Assembly (NCBI GenBank): GCA_965230895.1
Contig: OZ246394.1
Location: forward strand, 1,313,887-1,377,886
DNA: 64,000 nt
Direction of reading: 5' to 3'
Source: an uncultured Gammaproteobacteria bacterium
GTDB lineage: Bacteria; Patescibacteriota; Microgenomatia; Levybacterales; UBA12049
Numbering within the stretch: the first letter of the stretch is position 1; each line of letters opens with the position of its first letter. Positions 1-53,412 of the stretch are shown here, in pieces. Both the position numbers and the translations under genes were made by a program. The notes beneath the pieces were generated by a model. That model was given only the letters and a program-made list of their open reading frames with translations, was not told where the DNA came from and searched no databases.

Positions 1-3000
1 TCATATGATGATTGCAATGTATTTGAAGCAGCTGAACATTTGACTACATTATCTGAGCCATCAACACAAAGTGCTGTTCCAAGATCAGTTGTAAGGCCAG
101 TCAATACTAAGAATGAATCAGAATCAGTGTTAACTGTTACATCATTTGTACCATTTGGTGAGAATGTAGAAATACCATTTGCTGTAAATGTCTGACCAGA
201 TGCTATAGTTGCTCCACCATTTGCAGTGATCAAACCAGTAACAGTCAAGGCATTGTTAACAGTTGTTGTCCCAGTTCCTGCCCCAATACTTATTGCTGTA
301 GCAGCGCCGCCGATATTCAAGTTAGTAACGCCAGAATTAAGGAGGTTAAATGTACCAGCGGATGAAGTTAAGTCACCACCATTGATTGCTGCATCTCCAG
401 CAGTTGTTACATTTCCAGTTAATGTTGATGTGCCATCGATTGTGAGGTTGCCATTTGATTGGATATCACCAGCGTTTGAAAGGGTAGTACCAGTTGAACC
501 ATAGCCACCACCAACTTGAAGTGAATTCAATGTCGCTGCAGCACTTGGAGCAGTGAATGAAGTAGCATTTGCGAAGTTAACAGTTGCATTGTTGATTGTT
601 GTAGTACCAGTTGCAGCACCGATTGTAACTGCAGTTGCTGCACTTCCAACGTTCAATGTTGTTGCATTTGTAGTGAACAAGTTAACTGTTGCAGCAGTTG
701 TTGTGATATCTCCACCATTTACAGCAACATCTCCAGCTGTTGTGATATCTCCAGATCCACCAGCGATTGAGAAGTTCGTTGCTGTTACATCATTTGCTCC
801 GAGTGAGAGCGCGTTAACGATTTCAGCATCTGAAAGATCCAAAGCATTTGTGATGCCACCAGCAGCAGCTTGGATCTTGATGCCAGCAGCAACTGCTCGA
901 TTGGTATCTTGGTTATCAACCAAGATCATTTGTGCTGGGTCAGTTGTGCCAGCACCGTTTGCTCGAGTGAATGAAGTGAATCCAGTTGAACCATCAGCAG
1001 TTGTGATGGTGAAGTTTGCATCAGTTGCTGTGTCAGTGAGTGTGAATTCGATGTTTCGTGCATCAGTTGTTGTCAAAGTATTTCCGCCATCATATGCACC
1101 TTGGAGTGTAAATGTTGAAGCAGAACACTTTGTGACATTGTCACTTGCATCAAGACAAAGTGCATTTCCAGCAGTTCCTGGAGTTGTAAGTCCAGTTAAT
1201 GTTAGGAATGAATCAGTGTCAGTGTTGATTGTTACATCGTTTGTGCCATTTGGTGAGAATGTACTTGTACCGTTTGCAGTCAAAGTCTGACCGGTTGGGA
1301 TAGTTGCGCCACCATTAAGTGTTGCAAGGCCAGTTGCATTGAATGCATTATTTACAGTTGTTGAACCAGTTCCAGCACCGATTTGAACATTTGTTGCAGC
1401 TCCAGCAAAGTTAACTGTTGTTGCTCCAGTGTTGAAGACATTTGCAGTTCCAGCAGTTGTTGTGAGTGATCCACCATTGACTGCAACGTTTCCTGATGTT
1501 GTTACATTACCAGTCAAGTTAGAGGTTCCATCAACTGTGAGATTACCGTTTGCTGAAACATCACCATTTGCAGCGAGTGTAGTGCCAGTTGAACCATAAC
1601 CGCCACCGATTGTTACTTGTCCAGCTGTTGCGATATTTCCGTTAGAACCAGTGATAGAGAAGTTAGTTGCTGAGACATCATTTGCACCAAGTGCCAATGC
1701 TGTAACGATATCTGAATCAGACAAATCGATTGCTGTAGTAATACCACCAGCAGCTGATTGGATTCGGATTCCAGCAGTCAATGCTTCATTCACATCAAGG
1801 TTTTCGATCAATTGGAGTTGAGCAGGGGATGACGGATTTGAACCATCAGCCAATCCGAAGTATGTGTACCCAGTTGATCCAGCAGCTGTTGTGATAGTGA
1901 AGTTAGAATCAGTAGCTGTATCTGTAAGTGTGAATGCGATGTCTCGAGCATCTAATGTGTCGATTGTATTTCCACCAACGTAAGAACCTTGCAATGTACT
2001 TGATGCAGCTGAACACTTCGTAACATTGTTACTTGCATCGATACAAAGTTGTGTACCAGTTGCAGTTGCTAATCCGGTGATATTCAAGAATGAATCAGTG
2101 TCAGTGTTGATTACCAAATCATTTGTTCCTGATGGAGTGAATGTTGATTGACCATTTGCTACGAAACTGCCAGTTGTTGTCAAAGTCTTACCACTAACAA
2201 GTGTTGTGTCACCGTTAAGTGTTACTGCACCAGTTCCAGTTGAGAATGTACTTGCACCAGTCTGTGCGATGTTGTTGTTGAATGTCGCAACGCCATCAAC
2301 TGAGAGTGCGTCATTCAATGTTGTTGCGCCATCGACATTAAGTGCTGCATTAAGATTTGTATTACCAGCAACATCAAGTGATGCACTGAATGTTGCATAA
2401 CTTGCAACGCCAAGTTGTCCACCGAGTGAAGTCAAACCAGTTCCAACTGTGAATGTATTTGCGCCAGTTACTGAAGTTGCTCCGTTAAGTGAAACTGCGC
2501 CAGTACCAGTAGAGAATGTTCCTGATCCGCTCTGCGCAAAGTTACCAGCTGTTTGTGTGTATCCAGTAATGTTCTCAAGTGCACCAGCATTTGTGAGTCG
2601 GGAAGTACCGCCAGTGAAGAGAGAACCATCAGTGAGATCAAGGTTAGCAACTTGTCCGCCAGTTGAATTCTCAAGACTGAGTGTTCGAGTTCCGCCACCA
2701 GTGATGTCGAGTGTAGTATTGCCACCAGTGAATGCAACGTTTGTATCAGAGATACTGAGATCTGCAAATGTCTTCGCGCCAGTGAATGTTTGTGTTCCTT
2801 CGAGGAATGCAAATGTACCATTTGTACCAAGATCAGGAAGGGTGTATGTTCGTGAAGCTGCGGGATTAACAGCTGTAACTGTGATGTCATTGCCATCATC
2901 TGTACTTGTTGAACCTTCAAAGACTAAGTTATTGCCCTTGTTTGCACTTGAGTCATTACCAGTGAATGCTGATCCAGTCAAAACATTACCAACACCAGTG

Positions 3001-6000
3001 ATTGTACCAGCGCCAACACCTGATGCTGATTGCCATGAAAGAACACCGTTACCATCTGTTGCCAAAACATAATTTGTACCACCAGCATCTGTTGGAAGTG
3101 TGTAGATGATGTTTTCTGTTTGTGTACTTGCAACGAATGTAGTGGAGTATGCATTATCTCCATCTGAAACGACTGAGAATTGTCCTGGTGTATTTGATGA
3201 TCCAGGAGCGACATCTTCACCGATACTGATTCCTGAAGTATTTAAGAAGTTAACTGCGCCAGTTCCAGCAGCAATTGTGAAGTCAGTGTTTGCAGCGAGT
3301 GTAGTGTCTCCATTAAGTGAGATCGCACCAGTTCCAGTTGAGAATGTTCCAGCGCCTGTGATGTCGAAGTTGCCAGCTGTTTGAGCATAGTTTGTGATGT
3401 TTTCAAGTCCACCTGCATTGGTAAGTCGGGAAGTACTGCCAGTGAAGAGGGAACCATCAGTAAGATCAAGATTTGCAACTTGTCCGCCAGTTGAATTTTC
3501 AAGACTGAGAGTTCTTGTTGCTCCACCAGTGATATCAAGTGTAGTGTTACCGCCAGTCAATGCAATTGCTGCATCAGCCAAGACGATGTCATTAAATGTC
3601 TTTGATCCAGTGAATGTTTGTGAACCTTCGAGGAAAGCAAAAGTACCATTTGTTCCAAGATCAGGAAGTGTGAATGTCAAAGATGATGCTGGATTAACGG
3701 CTGTAACAGTAATGTCGTTGCCATCATTAACTGATGTTGATCCTTCGAAGGTTAAGTTGTTACCTTTTTGTGCACTTGAATCATTACCAGTGAATGCTGA
3801 TCCAGTGAGGACGTTACCGACTCCAACGATTGTTCCAGCACCAACGCCTGCCGCTGATTGCCATGAAAGATTACCACTACCATCAGTTGAAAGAACATAA
3901 TTTGTACCACCATTATCTATTGGAAGAGTGTATGTGATGTCTTCAGTTTGTGTTCCGGTGATGAATGATGTTGAGTATGCATTGTCACCATCTGAGATAA
4001 GTTTGATTGCTCCAGGTGTATTTGAAGTTCCAGATGCGATATCTTCACCAACTGTGATTCCAGCTGCATTTGTGAAGTTCGCTGTACCGTTTGCAATCAA
4101 TGCCCCATTTAATGTCGTTGTTCCAGTGATTGTTGCTGCGCCACCGAGTGATGTCAAACCAGTTCCAACTGAGAATGTGTTGGATCCAGAGACTGAAGTG
4201 TTACCATTCAACGTTACTGCGCCGGTTCCAGTTGTGAATGTGTATGCACCTGATTGAGCGAAGTTACCAGAAAGATCAAGTGTATCGTTGATTGAAACGT
4301 TTCCATCGATGTCTGTAATCTCGCCAGATGTTGCAATTCTCAAACCAGTTGTTGCTGATCCAAGATCAACGATGTCATCAAGGACGACATTGCCACCACT
4401 GTTTGCGATTGTGCCGTTCAAGTTCAAGTTGTCAGCGATACTTACATCACCATCAATATCTGAGATAGATCCAGCAGTTGAGACCCTCAAACCAGTTGTT
4501 GCTGAACCGATGTCAGTTGTGTCATCGAGAACCAAATTGCCAGCACTGTTTGAAACAGTTCCTGTCAATGAAAGATTTCCAGTAATTGAAAGGTTATCAT
4601 CAACATTCAATGTGTTTTCAGAGAGATCGGAGAGGGAACCTTCTATTTGGAGATTACCTGTTCGGCCGATGTTCAAAACAGTTGTTCCTGATGCAGATGC
4701 AGTCAATATATTTTGATCACCAGTTTCATTCAAGATAACGAGTGCTTTGCCAACTTGAGATCCTGTGACATTTAATGTGCCATCACCTTGTGTTACTGAT
4801 CCGAGTGTTGTTCGGCCACTTACTGTGAAGTCGCCAGTGACATCAGTGTTGTCATTCAAGTTCAAGCTTGAATTACTGTCTGAGATTGCGCCGGTTACAA
4901 CCAAAGTGCCATCAACGATGGTGTTGTCGTTCAATGTTAAGTCTCCATCAATGTCTGAGATTCCACCTGTTGGAGTAATTCGGATACCTTGTGCTGCTGA
5001 ACCGATGTCAGTTGTATCGTCAAGAACCAAGTTACCAGCACTGTTTGAAACAGTTCCGGTGACAGTTATATTGTCATCGATTGCGACAGTTCCGCCAGCA
5101 TTAATGTTGAGTGTTGATTGATTTGAAGTGATGTCGCCACCGTTAACTGCGATGTCACCTGAGGTTGTGACATTTCCAGTCAATGTTGATGTGCCATCGA
5201 TTGTTAAGTTACCATTTGCTGAGACATCACCGTTGGAAGCAATTGTTGCGCCAGTTGATCCGTATCCACCAGCGAAGTTTGTACTTGCAGCGCCGCCGAT
5301 GTTTACGGTTGTTGCAGTGGAGTTGAACAGGTTAGCTGTTGTTGCATTTGTTGTGATTGATCCACCATTAACTGCAAGGTTTCCTGCAGTTGTGACATCA
5401 CCAGTTAATGTAGAAGTACCATCAACTGTTAAGTTGCCATTTGATTGGATGTTGCCATTACTTGAAAGGGTAGTGCCAGTTGAACCATATCCATTTCCGA
5501 CATTAACTGCATCGATTGCCAATGTTGCTGATCCAGCATTGATTGCAGTTGCATTTGGAAGACTGAGTGTTTGATTGTTAATTGTAGCTGTTCCAGTACT
5601 TGCTCCGAGAACAAGTGAAGTAGCAGCGCCACCAACGTTTACTGTTGTTGCAGTACCATTTGCGATGTTGAATGTTGAAGCGTTTGTTGTGATGTCTCCA
5701 CCGTTTACTGCAACATCGCCTGATGTTGTGATGTTACCAGTCGCAGTAATAGTTCCTGAAGTTGAAATGTTACCGGTTGCACCAGCGATAGAGAAGTTTG
5801 TAGCAGCTACATCATTTGCACCGAGTGAGAGCGCATTGACGATATCAGCGTCTGAAAGATCAAGAGCATTAGTGATACCGCCAGCAGCAGCTTGGATCTT
5901 GATACCAGCAGCAACTGCTCGATCAGTATCTTCATTATCAACCAAGATTAATTGTGCTGGATCATTTGTACCGACGCCATCAGCTCGTGTGAATGATGTA

Positions 6001-24000: not shown

Positions 24001-24500
24001 TGAGTGAAGTTACCGTTTGCAGCGATATCTCCACCAAATGTTGCTGTGCCAGTTGTGACTGTAAATGCATTTGAAGCGGTAAGGAGTCCAGCAGAAGTGA
24101 TAGTTCCAGTGCCAGTTGTACTGATATTGCCTGTTGTTGAGAGTGTACCAAGTTCATTGATGGTCAAAGTCGTTGAACCGTTATTTCGGATATCAATTGC
24201 AGTTCCAGTTGCCCCGTTTGTGTTATCAAGGACAAATGCACTTGCTGTTCCTGCATTGGTTAAGGTGAATGAAGCATCAGTAGCTGTGTCAGCGAGTGTG
24301 AAAGCGATATCTCGGCCATCAGTTGTGGTGATAGTGTTGCCAGCGTTATATGCTTGCTGCAAGGTTACATTCAGTGCATTGGAAGAACAGATAGCGAGTT
24401 GGTTGTCTGAGTTTCGGCAAACAACTGTACTGCCAACATTACCTGAAAGGGTAGGTACTCTGACTAAATCATTGAGGATTATTTCGCCTGAAGCACTTGC
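1..24500 (-). repeat. Coding tandem repeat array inside the giant gene. The period is about 1.05-1.1 kb (about 350-370 aa), with at least 22 copies and an internal half-period.
   Basis: The plus-strand antisense ORFs repeat the motif ...PVEPYPPPT... about every 1.05-1.12 kb (ends at 7761, 8880, 9864, 10953, 12060, 16380, 17460, 18513, 19563, 20619). On the minus strand each unit contains the run LC.DGSDNV.KCS..S..LQSAYNGGNTI..TD.RDIAFTL.DTATD.NFT.TTA.GSTG... followed by ...NGGDITT...TTLNIGGAATTLNIGA.TGT.TINN... Many nucleotide k-mers longer than 30 nt are shared between copies. Confidence 0.85.
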
Positions 24501-27500
24501 TTCAAGAGTAAGGTCTTGATTGTTTCCGGTAGTGATATCCAAAGCTGCATTGTCGAAAACTAGTCCTGTAGTTCCAATTGTTTTGTTATTCAATGTCTGA
24601 GCTTGGTTCGCAAACACAAAAGTATCATCCGCAGATAAGGCTGGAAGTGTAGCTACTCGTGGTGCTGATGAAGCAAGTGCTGAAATGGTTGTGGTGTTGC
24701 CTGAACCAAGGATAATTTGGTTTGTTGTCGCTTGAGAGGTGAGAGTGCCAGTGGTAACCAAGTTGCCATTTTCCCCGATTGTCAGTGAGTTCGTACCATT
24801 TGATTGGATAGCCAAAGCTGTACCATTGCTTCCATTTCCTGCATTGGTGTCGTTGATTACTACGCCATTTGCTGTACCTTGATTTTGGATAGTGAATGAT
24901 GAATCTGTGGCTGTATCAGCGAGTACGAAAGCTATGTTTCGATTATCAGTTGTTGTTATAGTATTGCCAGCATCGTATGCCTGCTGAAGGGTAACATTCA
25001 AAGCGTTTGAAGAACAGACTGAAAGTTGGTTTGCTGCATTTCGGCAGACTACGGTATTTCCAGCAGTTGCTGAAAGGTTTGGTACTTGGAGGAGATCATT
25101 GATGATTGTTTGACCCAAACCATTTGCATCAATGGTAATATCCTGATCTGTACCTGAGGTTATATCTGTACTTACGCCGAGGAAGGTGAGTGTGCCGGTT
25201 GTACTGATTGCTCCTGAAGAGATTGTTGTAGCGCCTGAGATTGCTCCAGCATTGGTGATGCCACCGATGTTGTTGTTGATACCGCCTGTGATGTTTGCTC
25301 CGCCTGCAGCAACTGTTACTCCACCAGCTGTGATACTGAGTCCACCTGTTGAGATTGTTTGTCCAGCAGTGAAGACGTTTGCTTGATTGAGGTAGGCGAC
25401 GTTGTTCAATGTTCCAGCGGTATTAATATCAGCTCCATTCAATTGAATCGCACCAGTTGCATTGAGGCTTGCTCCTTGGATTGTTCCTGAAGCCGTAAGG
25501 TTAGTGATTCCAGTGATAGCTCCTGCATTGATGATACCGCCATTGGTATTATCGAGTCCACCACTGATTGTTGTGCCATTGTTTACGCTCAAACCATTTG
25601 AAGCGGTGAGTAAACCAGCAGACGTGATAGTTCCAGTGCCAGTTGTAGCTATATTGCCTGAAGTTGAAAGATTTCCTGTAGAAGTAAGTGCACCATCTTC
25701 GGTGATGGTGAGGTTCGTCACACCATTGGACTGTACTACTAATGCATTATTAACAGCGAGGCTAGTATCATTGAAAAGAAGACCATCTCCATCTGCAGCA
25801 CTGGTTATGATTAGGCCTGTAGCATCTCCATCATTATTTATTTCAAATGATGTGGGTGTGGTCAATCCTCCAGCAAGATTGAATGAAATGTTTCGGCCAT
25901 CTGATGTGTCTATAGTATTTCCTGCATCGTATGCTTGTTGCAATGTGACCTCAGCAGCATTGGCTGGACACTGGACTAATTGGTTGGTGACATCGTCTCG
26001 GCAGATGGTTGTTGCAGAGTTTGTCGTGGTGTTGAGTACTGAAAGTTGTGTTGTCTTGCCAAGAACGATCTCGCCAGTTCCGTTAGGTGATAGGGTGAGG
26101 TTTTGATTAGTTCCTGATGTAAGTGTTGAAGAAACGCCACTTAAGACGATATTTCCTGAAGTAGTAATAGAACCAGAACTGATTGTTCCTGTTGTGATAA
26201 GGTTCCCGTTTTCATTGACTGTGAGTGTTGATGTTCCATTTGATTGGATATCGAGGGCAAGTTGATTAGCACCATTGGTATCGTTAATGACAAATGCACT
26301 TGCTCCTGTCCCTGCATTGGTGAGTGTGAATTGTCGTGATGAACCGTTTGCCAATGTGAAGTCCACATCGCCGAATGTATCATCCGCTGAGATTGTATTG
26401 CCAGCTTGATATGCTTGTTGCAAATCTACATTTGCAGCGTTTGCAGGACATTGGATCAATTGATTTGTTACGTTGTCTCGGCAAACGGTAGTTGCAGTAT
26501 TAAGACTTGTATTAAGTGTCGTCAATTGGAGTGGACCAGCCAATGTTAATTGACCTGTACTTCCGAGACTTGCAACTTCAGTACCAGAGTTATTCTGGAA
26601 TGAGAGTTCATATGCTGGGCCAGTTCCTGTAACTTGGTTTTGGAGACTGAATCCGACATTGGTTGATGATGAGCCATTCCAATATGCTCCTTGGAAGGTA
26701 ACAAGGTTTGAGTTTTGAGTCTGTGATCCAACTGTTGCATTGCCAACTCTGTTCAAAGTCAATGTATCTGTTCCTGATTGATCTCCGATTTCGACACCTG
26801 AGAGAGCACCGATAACTGTGCCGTTGTCTGTAATGTTTGAATCACCGATGTTTGAAGCGAGGCCTGGATCGATGAATCGAGCGAGTCTGTATTGATTACC
26901 TTGTCCTCCGACGACTCCACCTGTACCAGCACAGTTACCTGAAGTTACACAGATAGCACCACTTGCATCAGGGACAGTTAGCACTCGGGTGGTGCCAGTT
27001 GATATCTGACTTGCATCAAAGATGAACCGCTTTGAAGTATCTGTATCGTCAACGAAGTAGGTAGTCAAATCAGTCAATGATTTGTTACTGAGAGTCTGTG
27101 TTTGATTCTGGAAAACGAATGTATCGTTGCTTGTGAGAGCCGGTAGTGTTGCGATTCGAGATGAAGAAGGGGCGATTGAGTTGATTGTAGTAGTATTTCC
27201 AGATCCAAGAACCAATTGATTTGAGGTTGCGAGAGAGGAAAGTGTGCCATTTTCGCTTATGGTTAATGTATTAACGCCGCCTGATTGGATAGCCAAAGCG
27301 ATATTTGTTGCTGCATTAGTATCGTTGATAACGAATGCATTATCGGTTCCTGCATTAGTCAATCGGAATGAAGCATCATCAGTAAGCGTATCAGCAAGTG
27401 TAAATGAAATATCTCGAGCATCAGTTGTGAGGATTGTATTGCCAGAATTATACGCTTGCTGCAATGTAACAGCTGCAGCGTTTGCAGGACATTGAACCAA

Positions 27501-29897
27501 TTGGTTTGTGACATTGTCTCGGCAGACTGTTGTTGCAGTATTAAGCGTCGTATTAAGTACTGAAAGTTGCGTCTCACTGCCGAGAACGATACTTCCTGAT
27601 CCGGCAGAGAGGGTGAGCGCCTCATTTCCTGTGGTTGCGATATCAGTTGCAGCTCCAGTAAAGAGTAATCCACCTGCTCCGATTGTCTTGTTGGTGAGTG
27701 TCTGAGCTTGATTCTCGAAGACGATTGTATCGTTTGCGCTGAGTGATGGGATACTGACGATTCTTTGAGCTGCTTGCGCGTTAGCATTGAAGACTACGTT
27801 ATTGCCAGTTGGTCCAAGTGAGAGTTGATTACTGCTATCTGATAGGTGAGCTGAAGATCCATTAAGGATTCCAGAACAAGTGATGTTGCCTGACGCATTG
27901 GTGATTGTACAACCAGTTGCTGCTGCTCCGCCAGCTAAAGCGACATCACCAGCACCGTTGACTGAAAGAGCTGTCGCTCCAGTGTTTTCATTGGTTAATG
28001 AAAGAGTGTTATTGTCAACAACAATCGCATAATCATTTTCTCCTCCAACTCCTCCTGTTATATCTTCAAACCGTAATGATGGGTCAGTATTTGAAATAGT
28101 GATATCTCCATCTGAAGTTGCTGCACCAGAAAGGTAAAGGTTTCGGAATCGCTTTGTTGCAGATCCAAGATCATAAACAGCATCTGCATCAGGTCCGATA
28201 TTTCCACCCACTTCTACGAGAAAATCCCCTGAAGGGTTTGTGCCGATTCCTACGTTTCCATTTGGTATGAGGAGGTTTCCTCCTCCCGTATCCAGTTGGA
28301 GATTTCCACTGTTATCCGTGGCAATCGTCGGATCAGGCGAACCATTGCCAGCAGAGTAAAGGGTGAGACTGCCAGATGTTCCTCCCAATCCAGTATTGTT
28401 CGTACCGAGAGCGAGAGCTCCTGTTGCTGAGTTAAAGAAGAGCGTCGCGTTACCGATTGTTCCATTTCCTCCGAGGATAAAGTCGTTAGCAGTTGAAGTA
28501 GGGCGGATGTAGTCGCCATATGTTGAATCGTTATCAACGATGAATGGAGTAACACCTGCTGAAGTGATCGCATTGTCGAGATCTTCAAGTACTTGTTGTA
28601 AATTAGTTGAACTAGCATTTGCGAAACTATCGTAGACGCCGACTAAGTTTGCACCTGAAGTATTTGCATCTGAACCTTCTGCATCAAGCGCGATTGAAGA
28701 CCAAGCTGGAAGACCATTTACTACCTGGAGGATTTTTCCATCTGTATCTCCAATTGGAAGCGCATCTAATTCATTGTTTCCTGAAGCAAAAAGTATGTCA
28801 CCAGTATTATATGAAGTCATACCAGTGCCTCCGTTGGCAACTGAAACTGTGCCATTGATAGCGCCAGCATCAACTGAGCCTCCAGGACCAATCGTTATAT
28901 TATTAGAAACAGCAACGTCTGTTATACAAGAAGCACAAGTTCCTCGTGCAACAACATCTCCAAGGGTAGAGATATCACTTATTGTTAATCCATCAATAGC
29001 AATTCCGTCACCTGATTGAAGTTCTATTTCGCCAGTTTCACCTTGAAGTGATGTTACTGTTTCAGCCTCAGGAGGAAGCTCAACCGAAATAGTAGGGTTT
29101 TGCTTATCTCCTGAAAGGACAATATTGTCTCCAGCCACGATGCTGTAGAGGATATTTGGAGCTGTAAGATCGCCTGTGAATTCACCTGTACCACCAACCT
29201 TGAGATCCTTATCGATCGTCGTGTTCCCATCAACCTCAAGGTTCTTTTTCACAGAGACGTTTTCCTTGAAAATGACCGGCAAAGCGAATGTAACATTTCC
29301 CGCAAGTTTTACTTTACTCGTCTCAGCAGCTAAGACTTCGCCATCTTGCGCAGAAGCAGTCCTGTAGTCGGTTGTCTCAAAGAGGAATCTGAACTTGTCT
29401 TGATTGCTGATGCCCACAAGTCCCAAAACAAGCAAAATCGTTGTAGTAATTGCGAGAGTTTTTGTCGATGGGACATGGAATTTGAAGCTGAGAGAATCGG
29501 AGATTTGTGCCTTGATGTGGTCTTTGATGAAATCGTCTTCGTAAAACCCATTACCGATCCAGTTCACTAGCCTTCGGTAAAAATCCGCCTTGGCGATTTT
29601 GTCAGGTAGGGTAGCAGGCTCTGAAACTACCTTTGCCAACTCAGATTCCATCTGCCCTGATGGGGTATCTGAAGCGTTGACTACTTCACCTTGTGCAGCC
29701 AAGTTTGAAGCCTTTTGAATTTCGAGAAAGTTCTCAAGCTGTTCCTCCGTGTACCCAATCTGCCCGTCATGGGTAATCGTAGGTTTGAGAATGTGAAGCT
29801 GGTTCCATTTGAGCAGCGTGTCAGTTGAGACTGCTAGTCGTTTAGCAGCCTCTTGAAGAGTGAGCAATTTAGGAGTTTTTGGACGGGCAGAATCCAT
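1..29897 (-). CDS. Giant cell-surface repeat protein. It is partial: the C-terminal part continues beyond the window start. N-terminal HTH_17-like domain, one transmembrane helix, then at least 9,800 aa of ectodomain made of tandem beta-solenoid-like repeats.
   Basis: Start codon is the reverse complement of cat at 29895-29897, and the upstream in-frame stop is the reverse complement of tca at 29994-29996. I checked the reading frame by hand at the start, near 12000 and at positions 1-60, and it is the same frame with no stop encountered (codon top coordinates are congruent to 2 mod 3). All three plus-strand frames show long spurious ORFs, which is typical of the antisense of a stop-free gene. 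The translation reads MDSARPKTPKLLTLQEAAKRLAVSTDTLLKWNQLHILKP..., then a TM helix TLAITTTILLVLGLVGI, and ends at the window edge with ...DGSDNVVKCSAASNTLQSSY. Confidence 0.8.
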   Translation of the reverse strand, partial: MDSARPKTPKLLTLQEAAKRLAVSTDTLLKWNQLHILKPTITHDGQIGYTEEQLENFLEIQKASNLAAQGEVVNASDTPSGQMESELAKVVSEPATLPDKIAKADFYRRLVNWIGNGFYEDDFIKDHIKAQISDSLSFKFHVPSTKTLAITTTILLVLGLVGISNQDKFRFLFETTDYRTASAQDGEVLAAETSKVKLAGNVTFALPVIFKENVSVKKNLEVDGNTTIDKDLKVGGTGEFTGDLTAPNILYSIVAGDNIVLSGDKQNPTISVELPPEAETVTSLQGETGEIELQSGDGIAIDGLTISDISTLGDVVARGTCASCITDVAVSNNITIGPGGSVDAGAINGTVSVANGGTGMTSYNTGDILFASGNNELDALPIGDTDGKILQVVNGLPAWSSIALDAEGSDANTSGANLVGVYDSFANASSTNLQQVLEDLDNAITSAGVTPFIVDNDSTYGDYIRPTSTANDFILGGNGTIGNATLFFNSATGALALGTNNTGLGGTSGSLTLYSAGNGSPDPTIATDNSGNLQLDTGGGNLLIPNGNVGIGTNPSGDFLVEVGGNIGPDADAVYDLGSATKRFRNLYLSGAATSDGDITISNTDPSLRFEDITGGVGGENDYAIVVDNNTLSLTNENTGATALSVNGAGDVALAGGAAATGCTITNASGNITCSGILNGSSAHLSDSSNQLSLGPTGNNVVFNANAQAAQRIVSIPSLSANDTIVFENQAQTLTNKTIGAGGLLFTGAATDIATTGNEALTLSAGSGSIVLGSETQLSVLNTTLNTATTVCRDNVTNQLVQCPANAAAVTLQQAYNSGNTILTTDARDISFTLADTLTDDASFRLTNAGTDNAFVINDTNAATNIALAIQSGGVNTLTISENGTLSSLATSNQLVLGSGNTTTINSIAPSSSRIATLPALTSNDTFVFQNQTQTLSNKSLTDLTTYFVDDTDTSKRFIFDASQISTGTTRVLTVPDASGAICVTSGNCAGTGGVVGGQGNQYRLARFIDPGLASNIGDSNITDNGTVIGALSGVEIGDQSGTDTLTLNRVGNATVGSQTQNSNLVTFQGAYWNGSSSTNVGFSLQNQVTGTGPAYELSFQNNSGTEVASLGSTGQLTLAGPLQLTTLNTSLNTATTVCRDNVTNQLIQCPANAANVDLQQAYQAGNTISADDTFGDVDFTLANGSSRQFTLTNAGTGASAFVINDTNGANQLALDIQSNGTSTLTVNENGNLITTGTISSGSITTSGNIVLSGVSSTLTSGTNQNLTLSPNGTGEIVLGKTTQLSVLNTTTNSATTICRDDVTNQLVQCPANAAEVTLQQAYDAGNTIDTSDGRNISFNLAGGLTTPTSFEINNDGDATGLIITSAADGDGLLFNDTSLAVNNALVVQSNGVTNLTITEDGALTSTGNLSTSGNIATTGTGTITSAGLLTASNGLSVNNGTTISGGLDNTNGGIINAGAITGITNLTASGTIQGASLNATGAIQLNGADINTAGTLNNVAYLNQANVFTAGQTISTGGLSITAGGVTVAAGGANITGGINNNIGGITNAGAISGATTISSGAISTTGTLTFLGVSTDITSGTDQDITIDANGLGQTIINDLLQVPNLSATAGNTVVCRNAANQLSVCSSNALNVTLQQAYDAGNTITTTDNRNIAFVLADTATDSSFTIQNQGTANGVVINDTNAGNGSNGTALAIQSNGTNSLTIGENGNLVTTGTLTSQATTNQIILGSGNTTTISALASSAPRVATLPALSADDTFVFANQAQTLNNKTIGTTGLVFDNAALDITTGNNQDLTLEASASGEIILNDLVRVPTLSGNVGSTVVCRNSDNQLAICSSNALNVTLQQAYNAGNTITTTDGRDIAFTLADTATDASFTLTNAGTASAFVLDNTNGATGTAIDIRNNGSTTLTINELGTLSTTGNISTTGTGTITSAGLLTASNAFTVTTGTATFGGDIAANGNFTQSGANIFSTGTGNVSLNGNTSVTGTNTFSVGTGATTLGGSLGVTGATNLNSTLDVASLATFNGGVTVSNGQALNASGAATFAPSGTNDVVFNTDADSTVQFNGLQTTAGNALCIDGSNNLALCNGAPFGLQAAYNTGNTIVTTDARNISFTLADVATDTSFTLENQGAASAFIINDTNVGTPNKSLVLQSGGVETLSIDENGNLATSGNLSTTGTGAITSAGLLTASNGFTQTTGALNLTATSGALNLSGLSASSINTGVNNLLITSGNLNVTATGINGTAIGATTPSTAAFTTLSSTGNTTLASAGSFTAGNDANALTLNGSTITANLTDNATDALDIQEGTNNYFNIDTTDGAEVIALGNAATNPIFNFLGTGAATFGGDINANANFTQAGAGTFSTGTGAVSLNGATAVTGANTFTVGTGLTSLGGQLDVTDLATFNGGVNVVAGTNFNASGSAVFAPDDTNDILFETDNNSTITINGLQSTGGTTGTALCLDDDNVLGYCSGSPFGLQSAYDTGNTIVTTNNRSIDFTLSSGLTTATSFNLTNNGNATGFNVVNAGTGTAIVINDTNVGTANTALSIQSGGNPSLTIDEDGVLATIGSITANSDINANSGVLATNAGAASIFNTSATTINLGGDATTISIGAATGETTINNDLVVSGTFNSNGISNVGDGGDAVNINGTNVTLTANGASSTISNNIVNNLANAFSVTQGANNYISVNTTTGAQNIAFGNMTTNPTFSFNSTGLATFGGSIAVNGGDITTTASSVNLFNTNATSLNLGGDATSVNIGANTGTTTINNNGVLAGTLAINGGSLTSDDSTFNLLNAGVTTLNFGGAATTLSIGAATGTTTVNNALTITGNTTANGDFTANGAVLLQPSGTDGVTIVSDADSFLNLPGLTTPMTSNSTLCIDASDNVVKCPPSASTLQSAYDGGNTITTSDGRDISFTLADTATDSKFIITTATGSTGGTEFIRADGVGASDPNQMVLIDNADADRILPIGLRITSSGTSGVTTAIDVSDPTIVTAIALGANDISGTNFSVNGSNGNITSAGNVAVNGGSLTTTAGTGNVFNANVTTLNIGAAATSVNIGAASGTMTINNATLSLPNATAIDAGSAALTIDSVTIGGGYGSTGTTLTNTGNISANGNLIIDGTSTLTGNITSAGDLALNGGDLTTSATTFNLINATAATVNFAGAATTLNIGANTGTTTINNNLTVSDDLLVTGQTTLTPSGTNDIILNTDLDSGLYVTGLPTATGNLVCIDNGTDQITKCASNAISLQSAYDGGNTIETTNAKDIAFTLTDTATDANFVITTESGSTGSTQFIREDGNGTNDPTQLVLIDNADTDRVLPVGLTISSSGGGGITTGIDLSDPTIVTGISLGVSGIAGTNFSVDGATGSITSNGDLTLNGNDITTGTTGTATIFNTNATTLNIGGAATTYTLGATSGTGNIRGTTINFPNATALNASSALGSFDSLSVGGSYGSTGLSITNTGNLSANGNLTIDGTSTLTGNVTAGADLAVNGGDITTTAGTASIFNANATTLNIGNAATTLSIGANTGTTTVNNGLTVEGDLTANSNVVFNPAGTSSITFNTDNDSPLIITGLPTASGTLVCIDAGTSQVTKCAADAISLQSAYVGGNTITTTNNRDIAFTLADTATDSKFTITTADGATGGTEFVRADGSGTNDPAQLVLIDNADTDRVLPIGLKISSSGGGGITTALDVSDASIVTAIALGANDISGTNFSVAGGTGNITSGGDLALNGGDITTTSGTASIFNANATTLNIGSAATTISIGATTGTATIRNATVSFLGTTFNANSATASFDALNVGNGYGSTGLTVTNTGNVSANGNLIIDGTSTLTGDITSGGDLALNGGDITTSSTGIASLFNANATTLNIGGDATVVSIGDDTGLTTINNSLTVDNDLTANGTSTFTPAGTGNVTINTDTDSGFYVTGLDAAPNGLLVCVDNSTGQINKCASDAISLQSAYTGGNTINTTDGRDIAFTLANTATDANFTITTADGSTGFTSFTRANGAGTSDPTQLILVDNLDTDRAVAAGIKIQSAAGGITNALDLSDAEIVNALSLGANNVTATNFSIAGASGDITTSGDVAVNGGDITTTQTTGNLFNTNVTTLNLGGDATTINVGASTGTIAINNQTISLPNATAINAGGALATLDAANLGGGYGSTGVSISNAGTIQANGNLTIDGTSTLTGNITSAGDLALNGGDLTTTSPTFNLINANATTVNFAGAATTLSIGAGTGTTTVNNALTITGNTTANANFTANGQSTFNPSGTNGVNITTDADSFLNVSGLTTAAGDVVCIDGSNNVVKCADSSISLQSAYDAGNTINTTSGRNIAFNLSDDATDSNFIVTTATGSTGGTQFIRADGVGSNDPTQLVLIDNADSDQILPIGLTISSTGGGGITTALDVSDASIVTAIALGANDITGTNFSVDGSNGNITSAGNIAVNGGNITTTQSSANIFNSNATTLNIGGAATSLTIGATTGTANIRNATINFANATSFNAPNAAAQFSSIAVGGGYGDTGVTLSSAGNIQANGTLTVDGASTLTGNITSSGDLALNGGDITTTALTASLFNTNATTVNIGGAATVISLGAATGTTTVNNDLAVTGTGTFTGALTANDSFDANGQSTFSPAGTTGVTINTDGDSFLTLTGLTTPGVAGTTLCLDASDNVTKCGGATFSLQAAYNGGNTINTTDARDIAFTLTNTATDSNFTVTSATGSTGNVQFLRADGSGTNDPSELVLIQNLDTDRALPVGLRIAGVTGGDVTTAIDLSDANIVNAIDFGDNDIVGTQLSITGSTGQITTSGDIAVNGGDITTTSGTANVFNTDATTLNIGGAGTAITIGATTGTTTIRNATLSLPNATTINALQATANIDALNVGDGYGSTGATIANNGNIQTNGTLTVDGVSTLTGNVTAASDLAINGGDLTSSATTFNLLNAGVTTLNIGGAATSVNIGAGTGTTTVNNALNVTGLATFNGGATVPSGQTFTANGISTFTPDGSNDVTINTDSDSFLTITGLTTATGNLLCIDGSDNVTKCSAGSVSLQGAYNGGNTINTTNNRDISFTLADTGTDANFTITTATGATGGTQFLRADGVGTNNPDQLVLIQNLDADQALPVGLKIAGVTGGDVTTAIDLSDANIVTAIDLGANDIAGTNFSVDGSNGNITSAGDAAINGGDITTLATSANIFNTNATTLNIGGAATSLNLGAATGTATINNDTVVLSNATAFDALSALARIDSLEVGGGYGSTGATIANNGNISTNGTLTVDGISTLTGNTTVGGTLGVTGATTLSSTLAVTGNTTMTGDLAVNGGDITTSATTFNLINGTATTVNFAGAATNLTIGGTTGTATIRNDQVVLSNATAFDALGALARVDGLQVGGGYGATGVTVSNTGNIQANGNLTIDGTSTLTGNVTAAGDVAINGGDLTTNQTTFNLLNTNATTLNIGGVATNVNLGAGSGRTTLNNNLTANIVDNSADALDIQEGTNNYINVDTTDGAENISFGNSSTNPTYTFSGTGLATFASNIAVNGGTIQTSATTANVFNATATTLNVGGAATSLNLGATTGTATINNATLSLPNATAINAANALATIGSLSVGGGYGSTGVSVSGTGNIQANGTLTVDGTSTLTGDITSAGDLALNGGDLTTTAGSASLFNTNATTVNIGGAATVISLGAASGTTTVNNDLAVTGTGTFTGDLTANDAFTANGASTFSPASANDVVINTDTDSFLTVTGLQTVTGSLLCIDGSDNIVKCSQGSISLQSAYNGGNSITTTDNRNIAFNLADTTTDANFTVTTAAGSEGYSYFGLADGANTAPANQLVLIENADADDAVAAGLRIQSENGGITTALDVSDAEIVNALAIGANNITGTNFSVDGGNGNVTTSGNVAVNGGTLSTSATTANLFNTGATALNVGGAATTLNIGATTGTANIRNATVALPNATAFDALSALARVDGLQVGGGYGSTGVSISNTGNIQANGTLTVDGASTLTGNVTTAGDVAVNGGDLTTTAGTFNLVNANATAVNFAGAATSLSIGAATGTTTVNNALTATGLITANDGITVATGETLTANGQSTFNPDGTNGVTVNTDADSFLKVTGLTTATGQTVCIDGADNIVKCSAASITLQSAYDGGNTINTTDGRDISFNLTNTATDSNFSVTTAAGSTGSSYFGLADGANSTNPAQLVLIENADTDDALATGLRIQSAAGGITTALDVSDAEIGTALAFGANDITGTNFSVTGSNGNVTTSGTITATGNINANSGTLATTQATGNLFNATATTLNIGGAATTVNIGAASGTMTINNATLSLPNATAINAANAIATIDSSVLGGGYGSTGISLANNGDISANGNLIIDGTSTLTGDVTTAGDLAVDGGDITTSAGTASIFNTNATTLNIGGAATAISLGAGTGTTTVNNALTATGLATFNGGATVATGQTFTANGASTFSPSGTNDVTINTDTDSSLILTGLATATGNALCLDGSNAVTLCNGAPFGLQAAYNTGNTIATTDARDIAFTLANTTTDSNFTVTTAAGSTGYSYFGLANGTNTTSPSQLVLVENLDVNEALSTGIRIQSAAGGITTAIDLSDAEIVNALSLGANDVTATNFSINGGNGNITTAGDVTVNGGDVTTTNATASLFNANATTLNIGAAATAINIGASTGTMTINNETLSLPNATAINAANAALTIDSVAIGGGYGSTGVSISNAGTIQANGNLTIDGTSTLTGNVTTAGDVAVNGGDITTTAGTASLFNANATTLNIGGDATAITLGAGSGTTTLNNNLTANLVDNNADAFDIQEGSNNYININTTDGAENISFGNTTTNPTYSFLGTGAATFGGNVAVNGGSITTTATTANLLNANATTVNFAGAATTLNIGASTGTATINNATLSLPNATAINAASAVATLDSAVLGGGYGSTGVSISNAGNIQANGNLTIDGTSTLTGNVTTAGDVAVNGGDLTTTSGTFNLVNANATTLNIGGAATTLAIGANTGTMTINNATLSLPNATAINAGSAALTIDSLVVGGGYGSTGVSISNTGNIQANGNLTIDGTSTLTGNVTAAGDAAVNGGDITTTAGTASLFNTNATTVNIAGAATVVNLGSSTGTTNVNNDLLVDGTTTATGLATFNGGATVATGQTLTANGQSTFSPDGTNGVTINTDADSFLTLTGLTTPVSAGSQLCVDGSNNVTKCSGNTVTLQSAYNGGNTINTTDGRDLAFTLSDTTTDANFTVTTAAGSEGYSYFGLANGTNSAPAGQVILVENADSNEAIAAGIKIQAAAGGITNALDLSDADIVNALSLGANDVAATNFSIAGGTGNITTAGDVAVNGGDLTTTNATAALFNTNATTLNVGGAATTLNIGANTGTANINNATINFANAIAINAGSAALTIDSVTIGGGYGSTGTTLANNGNISANGNLIIDGTSTLTGDVTATGDIALNGGDLTTSATTFNLVNGNATTVNFAGAATALSIGSGTGTTNVNNNLLVDGTTTSTGLATFNGGATIASGQSFIANGGSTFSPNGTNDITINTDTDSLLTITGLQTLTGSALCIDGSNTVAVCSADSITLQSAYNGGNTINSTDGRDIAFTLENTTTDSNFTVTTATGSTGGSQFVRADGAGAADPTQLVLIQNQDVNRALPTALRIAGVSGGAVTTAIDLSDANIVNALSLGANDVAATNFSIDGSNGNITTSGTVTATGNINANSGTLATTQTTANLFNATATTLNVGGAATTVNIGAATGTMNLNNATVNLANATAFDALTALARVDGLQVGGGYGSTGVTISNAGNIQANGTLTVDGISTLTGNVTASGDVAINGGDLTTTAGTFNLVNANATTVNIAGAATAISLGAGTGTTNINNDLLVDGTTIATGLFTANGGATVATGQTFTANGQSTFSPNSTNDVVINTDTDSFLQVTGLTTATGSTLCVDGSDNVVKCSAASITLQSAYNGGNTISTTDARNIGFTLADTATDANFTITTADGSTGFTSFTRADGVGTNDPAQLILVDNEDTDRAVAAGIKIQAAAGGITNALDLSDADIVNALSLGANDVAATNFSIAGATGNISTSGTITATGNITTSGDVAVNGGDITTNASTFNIANGTATTVNVGGAATSLVLGASTGTATINNQTLSLPNATAINAGSATLAIDAVNVGNGYGSTGTTLSSNGNIQSNGNLTVDGTSTLTGDVTTAGNLAVNGGSITTNATTANLFNSTATTVNIGGAASTNFAGGYGSTGATIASNGDVSANGNLTIDGTSTLTGNVTTSGDIAVNGGDITSNQSTLNINAGGTVAIDDNITVTGTVSNSAGNLVLDDTTDIGSAAQGIRITPTGGISDIDGDLTLNDNTIVDGTLVVTGAISDSNSSLNLNDNTDVTGDFTVSGRTTLGSVTQGDGTLNVTGSQVGKALVILNETGDQNILTASASGTTVLNIGRTGNLQIEGSLSDLSENTLNVDDNLSITGNLSLTGTVSNSAGNLVLDDTTDIGSATTGLRVSTAGSISDIDGDVSIADNLNLNGTIANSGGNVVLDDIVDLGSATTGLRIATSGEITDIDGNVSINDTLDLSGNFAQSGAYTFTTGTGAVTLNGNTSVSGSNTFSVGTGLTSLGGAATITGTTTLNGALIANGTANFTNAAGITVGEDIASGTSNTPGAIKLISDGDNAYSTSFITGTQTEDITYTLPIDNGGTNYVLSTDGSGNLSWQSAAGVGAGTIVGVGNVLTGSAFTGNDSSAQKGNNLTFEGSTSVNDGNDITVTAVNPASSLTFTLPDLGTNGTFAFLEGSQTFTGSKTFNDIVLADAAIALTGGNTTLDITGGATRTLSLENSTGGQVANLDLTDGSLFTGSTSRLTNAGGLENITNYAQTAGNFDITGAGTFSTGTGAISLNGDTTLAANTDFTIAAGTGAVNFLNTSGISIGEDVAPGSSNTPGQFSVVSDGDNAYSTTFVASTQTENIIYTLPTDAGGTNYVLATDGNGVLSWQSASGVGAGTITGVGNVLTGSAFTGNDSSANKGNNLVFEGSTSTDDGNDITVTAVNPAASRTYTLPDLGTNGTFAFLEGTQTFTGAKTFADLSISDTNVAFTGGNTTLDITGGGTRTLSLENSTGGQVANLDLTDGSLFTGGTSRLTNAGALENITGYTQTAGNFAQSGSGTFSTGTGAVSLNGATSVTGANTFTVGTGLTSLGGQLGVASYATFSASLDVAGNTNLNAALNVDGATTLNDALSVDGVATFNNNIAQTGASTFSTGTGAVTLNGDTTLVSGKTLTTTGSFVANGQSTFTPSGTNDLVINTDTDSFLNITGLATATGTQLCIDASNNVTKCSAASSTLQGSYVGGNTIDTLDARDIAFTLTDTATDSNFTITTAAGSTGYTYFGLADGSNPSSPAQLQLIENLDVNEALTAGIRIQSAAGGITTAIDLSDSDIVTALALGANDVSATNFSITGSNGNIATAGQVTIGGGYGSTGTTLAANGDVSANGNLTVDGTSNLTGNVTTSGNVAVNGGSLTTTAGTANVFNTGATTVNFAGAATNVQIGAGTGSTTVNNAFNATGLATLNGGATIPTGQTLTANGTSTFSPNGTNDVTINTDTDSFLTLTGLTTPGTAGNALCLDASDNVTKCSASTFTLQGAYDGGNTLTTTDARNIEFTLTDTATDANFTITTADGSTGFTSFTRANGAGTTDPAQMILVDNQDTNRAVAAGIKIQAAAGGITNALDLSDAEIVNALSLGANDVTATNFSIAGGSGDITTAGDVAVNGGDITTTAATVNLFTTNATTLNVGSAATAVTIGAATGTTTINNATVNFANATSFTAPSAAATLNSLQVGGGYGSTGTTLSNAGDIQSNGNLTIDGTSTLTGNVTTAGDAAINGGDLTSSAGTFNLLNSGVTNLNIGGAATAISIGAGTGTTTVNNALTVTGLITANGGATIASGQTFTANGISTFSPNGTNDVTVNTDSDSFLVLTGLTTDLGTALCVDGSDNVVKCSAASNTLQSSY

Positions 29898-30110
29898 GTG
29901 TTTTACAAGATAAGTTCGAGAGCTAGAGGATTTAGGCTTATAAAAATATAAAACTCTAGCCTTATCTAACTTTATTATTATTAATATAGGTAGTCAAGTA
30001 GGAATTTACATGTTTCTTACGTTGAAAAGACTTAGAGTAAATTGCTCAACAATAGCCTGAGTAGGGAATTGATATATTTTGAAGCTTTATAGTGCGATTT
30101 TATATCATCA
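29898..30110 (-). promoter_or_regulatory. Probable promoter and 5' leader of the giant gene. It lies in a very AT-rich spacer.
   Basis: It sits directly upstream of the first in-frame ATG. The stretch 29940-29990 is extremely AT-rich (TATA-like runs). There is no obvious Shine-Dalgarno sequence. Confidence 0.3.
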
Positions 30111-31318: not shown

Positions 31319-31630
31319 TTATTTCTTTTGTTGAGGTGGTGAGCTTTTCTGCCCAGGGCCTATTTCTTCTATTAACAATGTCTCAATGCCGAGAAACACA
31401 TGGACTTCATCTTTTTTAACCTTCATAACTGCTTGCTCAATTTTTAATTCCTTTACTTTCTGCTTCTGGTTATAAACATCTAATTGTGTGTGGATAATAG
31501 AGATGAAGTTCGCATGTTGAGGGTAAACATCGAACTTACCGACTTCATTAAACGATGTAATACGCTCAGCTTCGCCTTCATAAATGATGTTTTCGGTGTC
31601 TTCAACAATTACTTTAAGGGGGACTGACAT
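31319..31630 (-). CDS. atpC: F-type ATP synthase epsilon subunit
   Basis: A 103-aa protein that is the last gene after atpD. The N-terminal beta-sandwich-like sequence (KVIVEDTENIIYEGEAERITSFNEVGKFDVYPQHANFISII) fits epsilon. Confidence 0.7.
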   Translation of the reverse strand: MSVPLKVIVEDTENIIYEGEAERITSFNEVGKFDVYPQHANFISIIHTQLDVYNQKQKVKELKIEQAVMKVKKDEVHVFLGIETLLIEEIGPGQKSSPPQQKK

Positions 31631-31672
31631 ATTGTTAGGGTATCACGAAGCGAATATGGTGTACAAGCTTTA

Positions 31673-33166
<1,494 letters not shown>

Positions 33167-33172
33167 TTATCG

Positions 33173-34066: not shown

Positions 34067-34071
34067 AGTAT

Positions 34072-35553: not shown

Positions 35554-35555
35554 AG

Positions 35556-36718: not shown

Positions 36719-36762
36719 AGTTATCTTATTTTAGCAGAAATCGGGAAGCTTTGACGCTTGGT

Positions 36763-37569: not shown

Positions 37570-37602
37570 ACTATTATAGTAACATACTAGAAGGATACTA
37601 GA

Positions 37603-38352: not shown

Positions 38353-38444
38353 TTATATATGGTAGCATGAAATCGTAAATGCGAAAACGGTTATAGTAAT
38401 TCTATTACATTCTGAACTTGTGAAAAGTAGAGGTTAGAGTATTT

Positions 38445-50620: not shown

Positions 50621-50682
50621 AGTTCAGTAATTCCTTAGTATATTTTCCTTGAAGATTTTTGTGGTGTTTTCGTGGCTTACTG

Positions 50683-50755
50683 TGGGCCAGGAAGGACTCG
50701 AACCTTCGACAAGGAGTGTATAAGACGCCTGTTCTAGCCGCTGAACTACTGGCCC
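50683..50755 (-). tRNA. tRNA with a probable TAT anticodon (Ile-AUA)
   Basis: The reverse complement reads gggccag-tagttcagcggctagaac-a-ggcgt cttatac actcc-ttgtc-gaaggttcgagtccttc-ctggccc-a. The acceptor and T arms are perfect. The anticodon stem has one C-U mismatch. Confidence 0.7.
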
Positions 50756-53064: not shown

Positions 53065-53188
53065 ACTTCCTGAATCATCTCATTCTTTTCGGAATCCCTG
53101 TAAGCGATTTTCTAGAAACAATATTCAAACCGTTGTAGAAGGGGTTTCTATAGGGGATGGAGCAGAAATATATTTGTTTTGACTTTGT

Positions 53189-53390: not shown

Positions 53391-53412
53391 CTTAAGATTA
53401 GCAAACCTCATT

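Follow-up and report, generated by a model that had tools for sequence, protein, structure and literature searches.

The minus strand of the DNA analysed here (contig OZ246394.1, positions 1,313,887 to 1,377,886; hereafter the window, 64,000 nucleotides long) carries a single gene of at least 29.9 kb that is still open at the window edge, and whose product is almost certainly a real giant exported protein. On the reading that we regard as probable, this product would be an N-terminally anchored cell-surface fibre or adhesin of a small-genome bacterium of the Patescibacteria (candidate phyla radiation, CPR), probably a Microgenomates-like one. How such bacteria, mostly uncultivated epibionts with genomes of ~1 Mb, recognize and attach to their hosts is a central open question. 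If the genome were as large as the 1.32-Mb contig of the closest relative, described below, the gene would take up over 2% of it, which points to a costly and presumably important product.

Six-frame translation showed that the minus-strand frame is free of stops from position 29993 to position 3 (9,997 codons) and exits through the window edge. Read from the ATG at 29895-29897, the reverse complement of positions 1-29897 comprises 9,965 codons without a single stop, exactly as the original prediction, which was made from the letters of the window, had proposed. The other five frames of this region have 102, 368, 589, 686 and 926 stops, and the longest open stretch of any other frame in the window reaches at most 627 codons. 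The accompanying claim of long open reading frames (ORFs) in all three plus-strand frames did not hold, since only the codon-aligned antisense frame is long-open (maximum 619 codons) while the other two are interrupted by 926 and 589 stops. Given the background stop frequency of ~4.5-5% of codons for frames in the rest of the window, we calculate the probability of 9,965 stop-free codons at ~e^-450, far outside chance. The codon-position composition is, in addition, strongly asymmetric and coding-like (76% A+G at position 1 and 5.6% G at position 3). The ATG appears to be the real start, because orthologs in other genomes share the initial MDSARP... peptide; the stretch before the ATG shows no clear Shine-Dalgarno sequence, and the sigma-70-like promoter match upstream belongs to a class of sites that is no more frequent than expected (4 observed versus 7.5 in shuffled sequences). 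An alternative genetic code is not required, as translation table 11 gives no in-frame stops and leaves the neighbouring genes intact. At the opposite end, the window edge cuts a head module of the repeat array after 57 residues (the last A_head match covers residues 9909-9965 and model positions 2-57), so that the protein must exceed 9,965 amino acids.

Comparison with a related genome indicates that this frame is maintained by selection. The ortholog in that genome (locus L005, contig CAZDOJ010000001.1, 1.32 Mb) is syntenic, shares ~80% nucleotide identity, is collinear with the window gene over the first 11 kb and likewise has not reached a stop at the end of the retrieved flank, 3,753 codons in. 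Across 3,272 aligned codons the two proteins are 84% identical, the ratio of nonsynonymous to synonymous substitution (dN/dS) is 0.11, and the differences fall 454/253/1448 on codon positions 1/2/3. In the first 400 codons dN/dS is 0.05, and the N-terminal module, composed of a helix-turn-helix (HTH), a linker and a transmembrane (TM) helix, is 90% identical. Among 12 canonical paralogous repeat units, including the two most distal ones (positions 174-2150), nonsynonymous divergence (pN 0.25) is well below synonymous divergence (pS 0.59) and third-position changes dominate, which argues that the distal part of the gene is under coding constraint too. The repeats appear to be old; their DNA copies are 60-78% identical over at least 200 nucleotides and exact repeats in the gene reach 39 nucleotides at most, values that make repeat collapse or a chimeric join unlikely. 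Finally, an independent short-read assembly (Logan, SRR14271372) contains a contig 100% identical to window positions 28643-39564, which spans the upstream operon and the intergenic gap, promoter region included, and stops 1.25 kb into the giant gene. The organism is present in the sister runs of SRR14271372 as well.

These observations bear directly on the possibility that the locus is an artefact or a relic, produced by a chimeric or collapsed repeat join or representing a decaying pseudogene that stays open through its low-complexity composition. Misassembly is common in genes rich in repeats, contig ends truncate most relatives and one homolog (L047) is split across many frames; moreover, the exact window sequence was not found in two public collections scanned, one of genome contigs and one of metagenome contigs (an exact 50-mer of positions 1-50 is absent from both), and positions 1-18,600 are not backed by any independent assembly. 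Against this stand the complete absence of stops where the sister frames have hundreds, the divergence of the repeats, the purifying selection seen both against the ortholog and among the distal units, the perfect match of the independent contig at the 5' end and the collinearity of the ortholog. We consider an artefact or relic very unlikely and already largely refuted, and the proposal of one genuine gene of at least 29.9 kb is borne out.

The encoded protein has a markedly biased composition (17.7% Thr, 13.3% Gly, 12.3% Ala, 11% Asn and 8.3% Ser) and is acidic, with 619 Asp but only 61 Lys, 94 Arg and 102 Glu in 9,965 residues. The cytoplasmic HTH and single TM helix that had been proposed for its N-terminus are both recovered, the former with a qualification. 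The helix is the single 19-residue window with a mean Kyte-Doolittle hydropathy above 1.6 in the entire sequence. The HTH, which is of the MerR/excisionase type and is conserved in family alignments, is weak in the window protein itself (MerR_1, 20.5 bits against a cutoff of 21.6, E 5e-4; HTH_17, E 0.007; TIGR01764, E 0.038; and phrog_66, an excisionase/regulator family, E 1.1e-5) and clear in its relatives (PF13411, PF12728 and PF00376, with one long homolog matching MerR at E 5e-11). Neither the coiled-coil dimerisation helix nor the effector-binding domain of MerR proteins is present in the sequence or among its Pfam matches, their place being taken by a poorly conserved linker, with a conserved juxtamembrane motif, and the TM helix. 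All 52 cysteines lie C-terminal to this helix and form 26 close pairs, mostly C-x9-10-C, an arrangement that fits an oxidising, extracytoplasmic site with disulfide loops. The hydrophobic pattern has a strong period of 2, indicative of short beta-strands, and further peaks at the repeat periods of 112 and 352-369 residues; no clear peak corresponds to an ~18-residue solenoid periodicity.

Hidden Markov models (HMMs) built from internal copies were used to map the repeats beyond the TM helix (Table 1). The architecture expected from the original prediction, ~1,600 residues of unique ectodomain followed by at least 22 repeats of ~360 residues, proved only approximately right and needs two corrections. 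The unique part amounts to ~600 residues, because the first Cys-loop/LQxAY module begins at about residue 760, and of the 23 Cys-loop head modules only 12-13 sit in canonical units of 350-376 residues. Two units are of double length (701 and 716 residues), while seven heads belong to a short variant that lacks ~45 residues of the long one in alignments and recurs at spacings of 160-416 residues. The non-repeat ectodomain carries a CxxC pair (residues 321/324) and the motif LPxGxxDGxxLQxxNGxPxW, and matches nothing in Pfam or the Protein Data Bank (PDB). In the core array each long-variant head (~170 residues, with a C-x9-10-C loop followed by LQSAYxGGNTI) is followed by beta sub-repeats in the order B(61)-C(58)-B(55), two units having additional B/C copies; canonical units share 55-69% protein identity with one another. 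A distinct distal region then includes two ~276-residue repeats with the motif YTLPxDxGGTNYVLxTDGxGxLSWQS, before canonical units resume.

Table 1. Features of the giant gene and its surroundings. Positions refer to the window unless a locus of another genome is named; residues refer to the giant protein.
Feature	Residues	Position (nt)	Strand	Basis or remarks
Giant ORF, 9,965 codons		1..29897	-	0 in-frame stops; dN/dS 0.11 against L005; 3' end past the window edge
Sigma-70-like promoter match, TTGACT-17-TAAAGT		29969..29997	-	~70 nt 5' of the ATG; weak, not above chance
MerR/excisionase-type HTH, predicted cytoplasmic	11-62	29712..29867	-	Sub-cutoff Pfam match, phrog_66, homologs
Juxtamembrane motif W-x-G-x-x-F/Y-x-D-D-F	~105-123	29529..29585	-	Conserved; W113, G115, D121 and F123 invariant in alignment
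Sole TM helix LAITTTILLVLGLVGIS, predicted signal-anchor	~147-165	29403..29459	-	Hydropathy
Non-repeat N-terminal ectodomain	166-759	27621..29402	-	Outside the repeat HMMs; 39-46% identity in orthologs
Proximal array: 7 short-variant Cys-loop/LQxAY heads with variable beta-rich spacers	760-2837	21387..27620	-	A_head HMM, E 2e-9 to 4e-32
Core array: 13 long-variant heads	2838-8285	5043..21386	-	HMM map
Distinct distal region	8286-9249	2151..5042	-	Outside the unit HMMs; no PDB or Pfam match
Second canonical array: two units and the start of a third head	9250-9965	1..2150	-	A_head matches at residues 9250, 9544 and 9909-9965
F-type ATP synthase genes (b-like, delta, alpha, gamma, beta, epsilon)		31319..36718	-	Pfam/NCBIfam; immediately upstream, co-directional
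HTH-TM paralog (other genomes)		L008 8703-9929; L010 8466-9866; L016 8505-9881; L018 8463-9836; L021 8524-9852		
tRNA gene		50682-50755	-	
tRNA gene		53187-53256	-	
tRNA gene		53317-53391	+	

Whole-protein searches of Pfam and NCBIfam and sequence searches of the PDB identified no family that covers the ectodomain, and the PDB returned nothing for the unit profile, the N-terminus, the N-terminal ectodomain or the distal region. Short Pfam/NCBIfam matches to KOW7_SPT5, UBA_RAD5A and PilY2, together with a weak one to Bactofilin, were dismissed as low-complexity or spurious. A search of 1.84 billion proteins with the HMM of the repeat unit, on the other hand, retrieved 1,858 cluster representatives, of which 264 reach E<=1e-30; most are contig-truncated fragments, and within the top 150 the maximum length is 5,657 residues. 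Some relatives bear the NCBI label 'beta strand repeat-containing protein', and 17 long homologs are nearly devoid of Pfam domains, with occasional CBM_4_9, Kelch and MerR matches. The earlier suggestion that the protein fits no named adhesin family and may found a new family of surface proteins is thus correct in that no curated match exists, and 'new' applies only in the sense of uncurated, given the 1,858 representatives, the generic NCBI names and the homology of its sub-repeats to those of phage tail fibres.

This homology is confined to the B/C sub-repeats, where the 'short tail fiber protein' family phrog_4527 has matches in three of the four quarters of the protein (E 1.4e-36, 1.1e-51 and 4.8e-5) and phrog_6002, a virion structural protein, gives E values of 5.6e-28 and 3.1e-32. 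The sub-repeats, whose consensus reads NGGDITT...NLFNxNATTLNIGGAATxxxIGAxTGTTTxNN and GGGYGSTG...NGNLTIDGTSTLTGN, are up to 83% identical over 59 residues to proteins of phage-like contigs, encoded beside Mtd_N, Amidase_2, ThyX and RNR genes. They and the phage tail-fibre repeats are probably the same fibre-building module, and the occurrence of one sub-repeat in phage-like contigs and in the giant protein suggests that such modules have been exchanged between phages and CPR-type surface proteins. The giant gene would thereby illustrate how fibre-building modules pass between viral and cellular surface proteins. The Cys-loop head module is present in relatives of the cellular type, and the two phage-encoded carriers that were inspected did not show it. 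Compared with the phage proteins that share its sub-repeats (phrog_4527, phrog_6002 and the Mtd_N fibre proteins of uncultured freshwater phages), the giant protein is chromosomally encoded, has an N-terminal HTH and TM anchor, lacks Mtd_N and is ~10-30 times longer; the window contains no capsid, terminase or tail genes, and the giant gene lies among housekeeping genes. In phage-like metagenome contigs (L041-L046), one protein family, represented by the 350-residue P0069 and by the 515-residue P0065 with Mtd_N, shares the 59-residue sub-repeat at ~80% identity and has ThyX, RNR, Amidase_2, Gly_rich_2 and Mtd_N genes as neighbours.

To delineate the family, GTDB species genomes were searched with the N-terminal module (an alignment of four sequences) and with patterns that included the motif WxGxxFYxDDF. 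Of the 36 related loci recovered, 22 possess the N-terminal module, and alignments revealed a common set of features: an HTH preceded by MDSxRP..., the WxGxxFYxDDF motif, a single TM helix, the motif [DN][LI]TAPN[IV]LY and a long beta-repeat ectodomain. The loci are labelled Levybacteria/Levyibacteriota, Amesbacteria, Roizmanbacteria, Kerfeldbacteria or Saccharimonadales, or carry placeholders; in our judgement, formed without a phylogeny, placeholders such as the 'uncultured Gammaproteobacteria' given to L005 are probably wrong. The gene belongs to a family that is uncurated and occurs in Microgenomates-like as well as other Patescibacteria. Of the 22 loci examined, 20 have an ORF that exits at the end of the locus or contig, the contig itself ending inside the gene in 13; six ORFs are still open past 3,690 residues and two are short (667 and 1,473 residues), so that sizes range from 667 to more than 9,965 residues. 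A family that is this widespread and this routinely truncated in metagenome-assembled genomes (MAGs) is under-counted. The L005 ortholog has ~455 residues more than the window protein within its first 3,750 residues, which indicates that repeat number differs between close species. The additional residues (L005 17241-18358, compared with window 22875-23983) look like a tandem duplication of one proximal module. In the long-read-style contig of L047 (positions 756-12256 of ENA contig_57579), homologous units extend over ~11.5 kb and switch among all three forward frames, being called as ~10 ORFs; L047 represents either a long-read assembly full of frameshifts or a relative that has become a pseudogene.

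The position of the gene is also conserved. In all 19 loci examined it adjoins F-type ATP synthase genes. In 16 of them the two are co-directional and the giant gene mostly follows atpC directly; in the other three (L023, L025 and L031) the atp genes lie on the opposite strand. In the window atpC occupies 31319-31630 and is separated from the giant ATG by a 1.4-kb AT-rich gap (34% GC). The ATP synthase operon can thus be regarded as a conserved neighbour of the giant gene, any functional link being putative.

In the model that we hold to be probable as a full explanation, the first ~145 residues (HTH and linker), which lack a signal peptide, would remain in the cytoplasm, and the helix at residues ~147-165 would act as a signal-anchor that holds the protein in the membrane. 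The ectodomain of more than 9,800 residues, beta-rich, acidic and disulfide-looped, would be exported and would form a long rod in which tail-fibre-type modules are interspersed with head modules, hundreds of nanometres in length. From rises typical of beta-solenoids and phage fibres we estimate a length of ~0.25-0.5 micrometre, which would be comparable to or greater than the size of a CPR cell. The fibre would attach the cell to another (host) cell or to a surface, with its reach set by the number of repeats and binding performed by the head modules or the distal regions. Export, fibre shape, length and adhesive function are the parts of this model that we infer. Patescibacteria are epibionts, a Saccharibacterium cannot do without surface proteins that are predicted adhesins (PMC11665869), and large adhesin-like ORFs had earlier been noted in Patescibacteria and proposed to be adhesins (PMC10066038); together, this lifestyle, the essential predicted adhesins and the similar large ORFs make attachment the best-supported function. 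The CBM_4_9 or Kelch domains of some long homologs also speak for a fibre.

Several observations weigh against this interpretation. No recognised adhesion or carbohydrate-binding domain was found in the window protein with Pfam or NCBIfam, and the C-terminus, a possible seat of a binding or anchoring domain, lies outside the window. Past about residue 3,300, the continuity of the sequence is not backed by an independent assembly. AlphaFold2 (AF2) modelling of the whole unit from a 12-sequence alignment was poor and unusable (predicted local distance difference test score, pLDDT, of 46), and the head module, modelled with a pLDDT of 84, was almost without regular secondary structure and had no significant structural match in the PDB or BFVD. 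The taxonomic labels of the related MAGs are inconsistent. A cytoplasmic HTH is unexpected on a simple adhesin, and neither this fusion of a DNA-binding-type domain to a giant ectodomain nor the conserved place beside the ATP synthase operon is explained by a fibre.

The HTH is at the heart of the main rival, in which the protein is a membrane-tethered transcription regulator or contact sensor: a working HTH would respond to contact, tension or a ligand sensed by the ectodomain, either in the manner of ToxR/CadC-like one-component systems or through release of the HTH by regulated proteolysis, with adhesion as an additional function or none at all. The HTH-linker-TM module is indeed the best-conserved part of the protein when set beside L005 and is retained across the family, and the order of an HTH inside, a TM helix and a domain outside is a ToxR-like topology. 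In five loci, moreover, the same HTH-TM module heads a second, unrelated membrane protein of 409-467 residues encoded next to the giant gene, which suggests a reusable functional module. Yet the HTH match of the window protein stays under the Pfam cutoff, no MerR-type dimerisation helix or effector domain follows it, DNA binding is predicted only and has no known target operator, and a sensor has no need of 9,800 residues of repeats; we therefore judge this possibility to be unlikely. The two ideas could be combined in a fibre of more than 10,000 residues that is wired through one TM helix to a functional MerR-type HTH, so that host contact or tension controls transcription or tethers the nucleoid. 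This variant is a speculative one that we think rather improbable; if the HTH proved functional, the protein would represent a new kind of signal transducer in episymbiotic CPR bacteria, conserved beside the ATP synthase operon across Microgenomates-like lineages.

Two further interpretations were considered. The protein could be a structural component of the envelope or coat instead of an adhesin, associated with a matrix or surface layer (S-layer) and wrapping or spacing the envelope, along the lines suggested for the giant protein of Velamenicoccus; a coat function has been put forward for another giant ORF from a nanobacterium (PMC10066038), and a predicted exported product that is repetitive, beta-rich, acidic and of low complexity, encoded at a conserved place next to a housekeeping operon, would suit it. 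A single N-terminal anchor without SLH or S-layer domains does not, however, and the homology to phage tail-fibre repeats indicates a rod instead of a lattice, while the strong variation in size and the change of repeat number between close species are typical of surface-exposed interaction proteins. A coat function accordingly seems doubtful to us. The neighbouring genes, in turn, recall an ATPase-coupled machine for surface motility or attachment, comparable to the gliding legs of Mycoplasma mobile with their F1-like ATPase. In Omnitrophota and Saccharimonadia, F-type ATPase loci linked to symbiosis have been reported (PMC10066038), and beside the b-delta-alpha-gamma-beta-epsilon genes of the window no a or c subunit genes are recognisable. 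The beta subunit nevertheless passes the cutoff of the canonical atpD equivalog (483.7 versus 462.85), whereas gliding-type (MMOB1670/1660) and alternate F1F0 models fall far below their cutoffs on the window ATPase; in addition, gene order can be conserved without a functional link, and the AT-rich gap separates atpC from the giant gene. We rejected a Mycoplasma-type gliding ATPase as the principal explanation on the grounds of the model scores, and regard a coupled machine of any such kind as extremely improbable.

Long surface rods made of tens of tandem beta-rich modules are a feature of RTX/type I secretion system (T1SS) adhesins such as LapA, SiiE and FrhA, and of Ebh and other Gram-positive giants; their repeat number varies between strains, and the gene is often the largest of the genome. 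A Mobiluncus adhesin, for example, reaches 7,651 residues (PMC10619420), and huge bacterial proteins fall mainly into nonribosomal peptide synthetases/polyketide synthases and surface-attachment groups (PMC11573180). The protein described here resembles these adhesins in its varying repeat number and, if the favoured reading is correct, in forming a long repetitive surface rod with a role in attachment. It differs from the RTX/T1SS proteins in lacking BIg, cadherin, Ig-like and HemolysinCabind Pfam matches and any GGxGxD motif (0 in 9,965 residues), and its predicted anchor is an N-terminal signal-anchor placed after a cytoplasmic HTH instead of a T1SS retention module, a sortase signal or a C-terminal TM helix; a T1SS secretion signal at the C-terminus and T1SS genes downstream would, if present, lie past the window edge. 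Unlike LPXTG proteins, it starts with 145 residues of HTH and linker followed by a TM helix, has no signal peptide and shows no LPxTG in its visible 9,965 residues; unlike trimeric autotransporters, it gives no YadA or Hep_Hag match and is anchored at the N-terminus, the C-terminus being outside the window. With ToxR/CadC regulators it shares a predicted topology in which a DNA-binding-type domain at the N-terminus lies in the cytoplasm and is joined by a single TM helix to an extracytoplasmic domain, but the HTH is of the MerR/excisionase type and not an OmpR-type winged helix, and the outer part consists of more than 9,800 residues of repeats and not of a compact sensor.

The giants of Omnitrophota and other nanobacteria (West-Roberts et al. 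2023, bioRxiv 10.1101/2023.11.21.568195; Seymour et al. 2023, PMC10066038) likewise belong to ultra-small, probably host-dependent bacteria, have few annotated domains, contain beta-helix-like filament segments, are proposed to act in cell adhesion and are fragmented in metagenome assemblies. The Omnitrophota proteins reach 30,000-85,804 residues and have numerous TM regions and divergent SecA DEAD domains (bioRxiv 10.1101/2023.11.21.568195); the window protein differs from them in having one TM helix, no SecA match, one dominant repeat unit and an N-terminal HTH. Since this preprint reports proteins of at least 10,000 residues in many phyla, the largest of 85,804 residues, the claim that the window encodes one of the very largest bacterial proteins was overstated. 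Giant repetitive surface proteins are a well-known kind, of which this is a large but not a record-breaking member. A limited literature search, which makes for a weak negative, did not find the combination of a MerR-type HTH, a single TM helix, Cys-loop heads, tail-fibre-type sub-repeats and a conserved place next to the atp operon.

Upstream of the ATPase b-like gene, the window encodes a 268-residue protein (36763-37569, minus strand) whose position is conserved in 17 of the 19 loci, in 13-14 of which it is co-directional and 58-90% identical. It comprises a signal peptide, a domain of ~190 residues and a C-terminal two-helix hairpin, the loop of which (EALGRNPSA) resembles that of the ATP synthase c subunit, although the carboxylate of helix 2 is missing. 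The window has no counterpart of the 409-467-residue paralog that five loci carry between atpC and the giant gene. This paralog joins the same N-terminal HTH and TM helix to a low-complexity stretch, another TM helix and a conserved C-terminal domain of ~130 residues (LEIDQKTDGTVV...RLGFVGIKRDLFFPRTSK).

The remainder of the window is ordinary chromosome, with genes for a His kinase, GSDH, UppP, a XerC-like protein, RadC, MurD, FtsH and Fpg as well as tRNAs. Four ORFs of 278-446 residues (38445-39746, minus strand; 39820-41160, 47486-48523 and 52228-53064, plus strand) have no Pfam match at E<=0.01; one of them, of 433 residues, was not found in the other loci and is 89% identical in L005. The tRNA genes specify a tRNA-Ile with the anticodon TAT and two tRNA-Met(CAT) on opposite strands just upstream of murD, one of which has a low score (42.8 bits) and a length of only 69-70 nucleotides.

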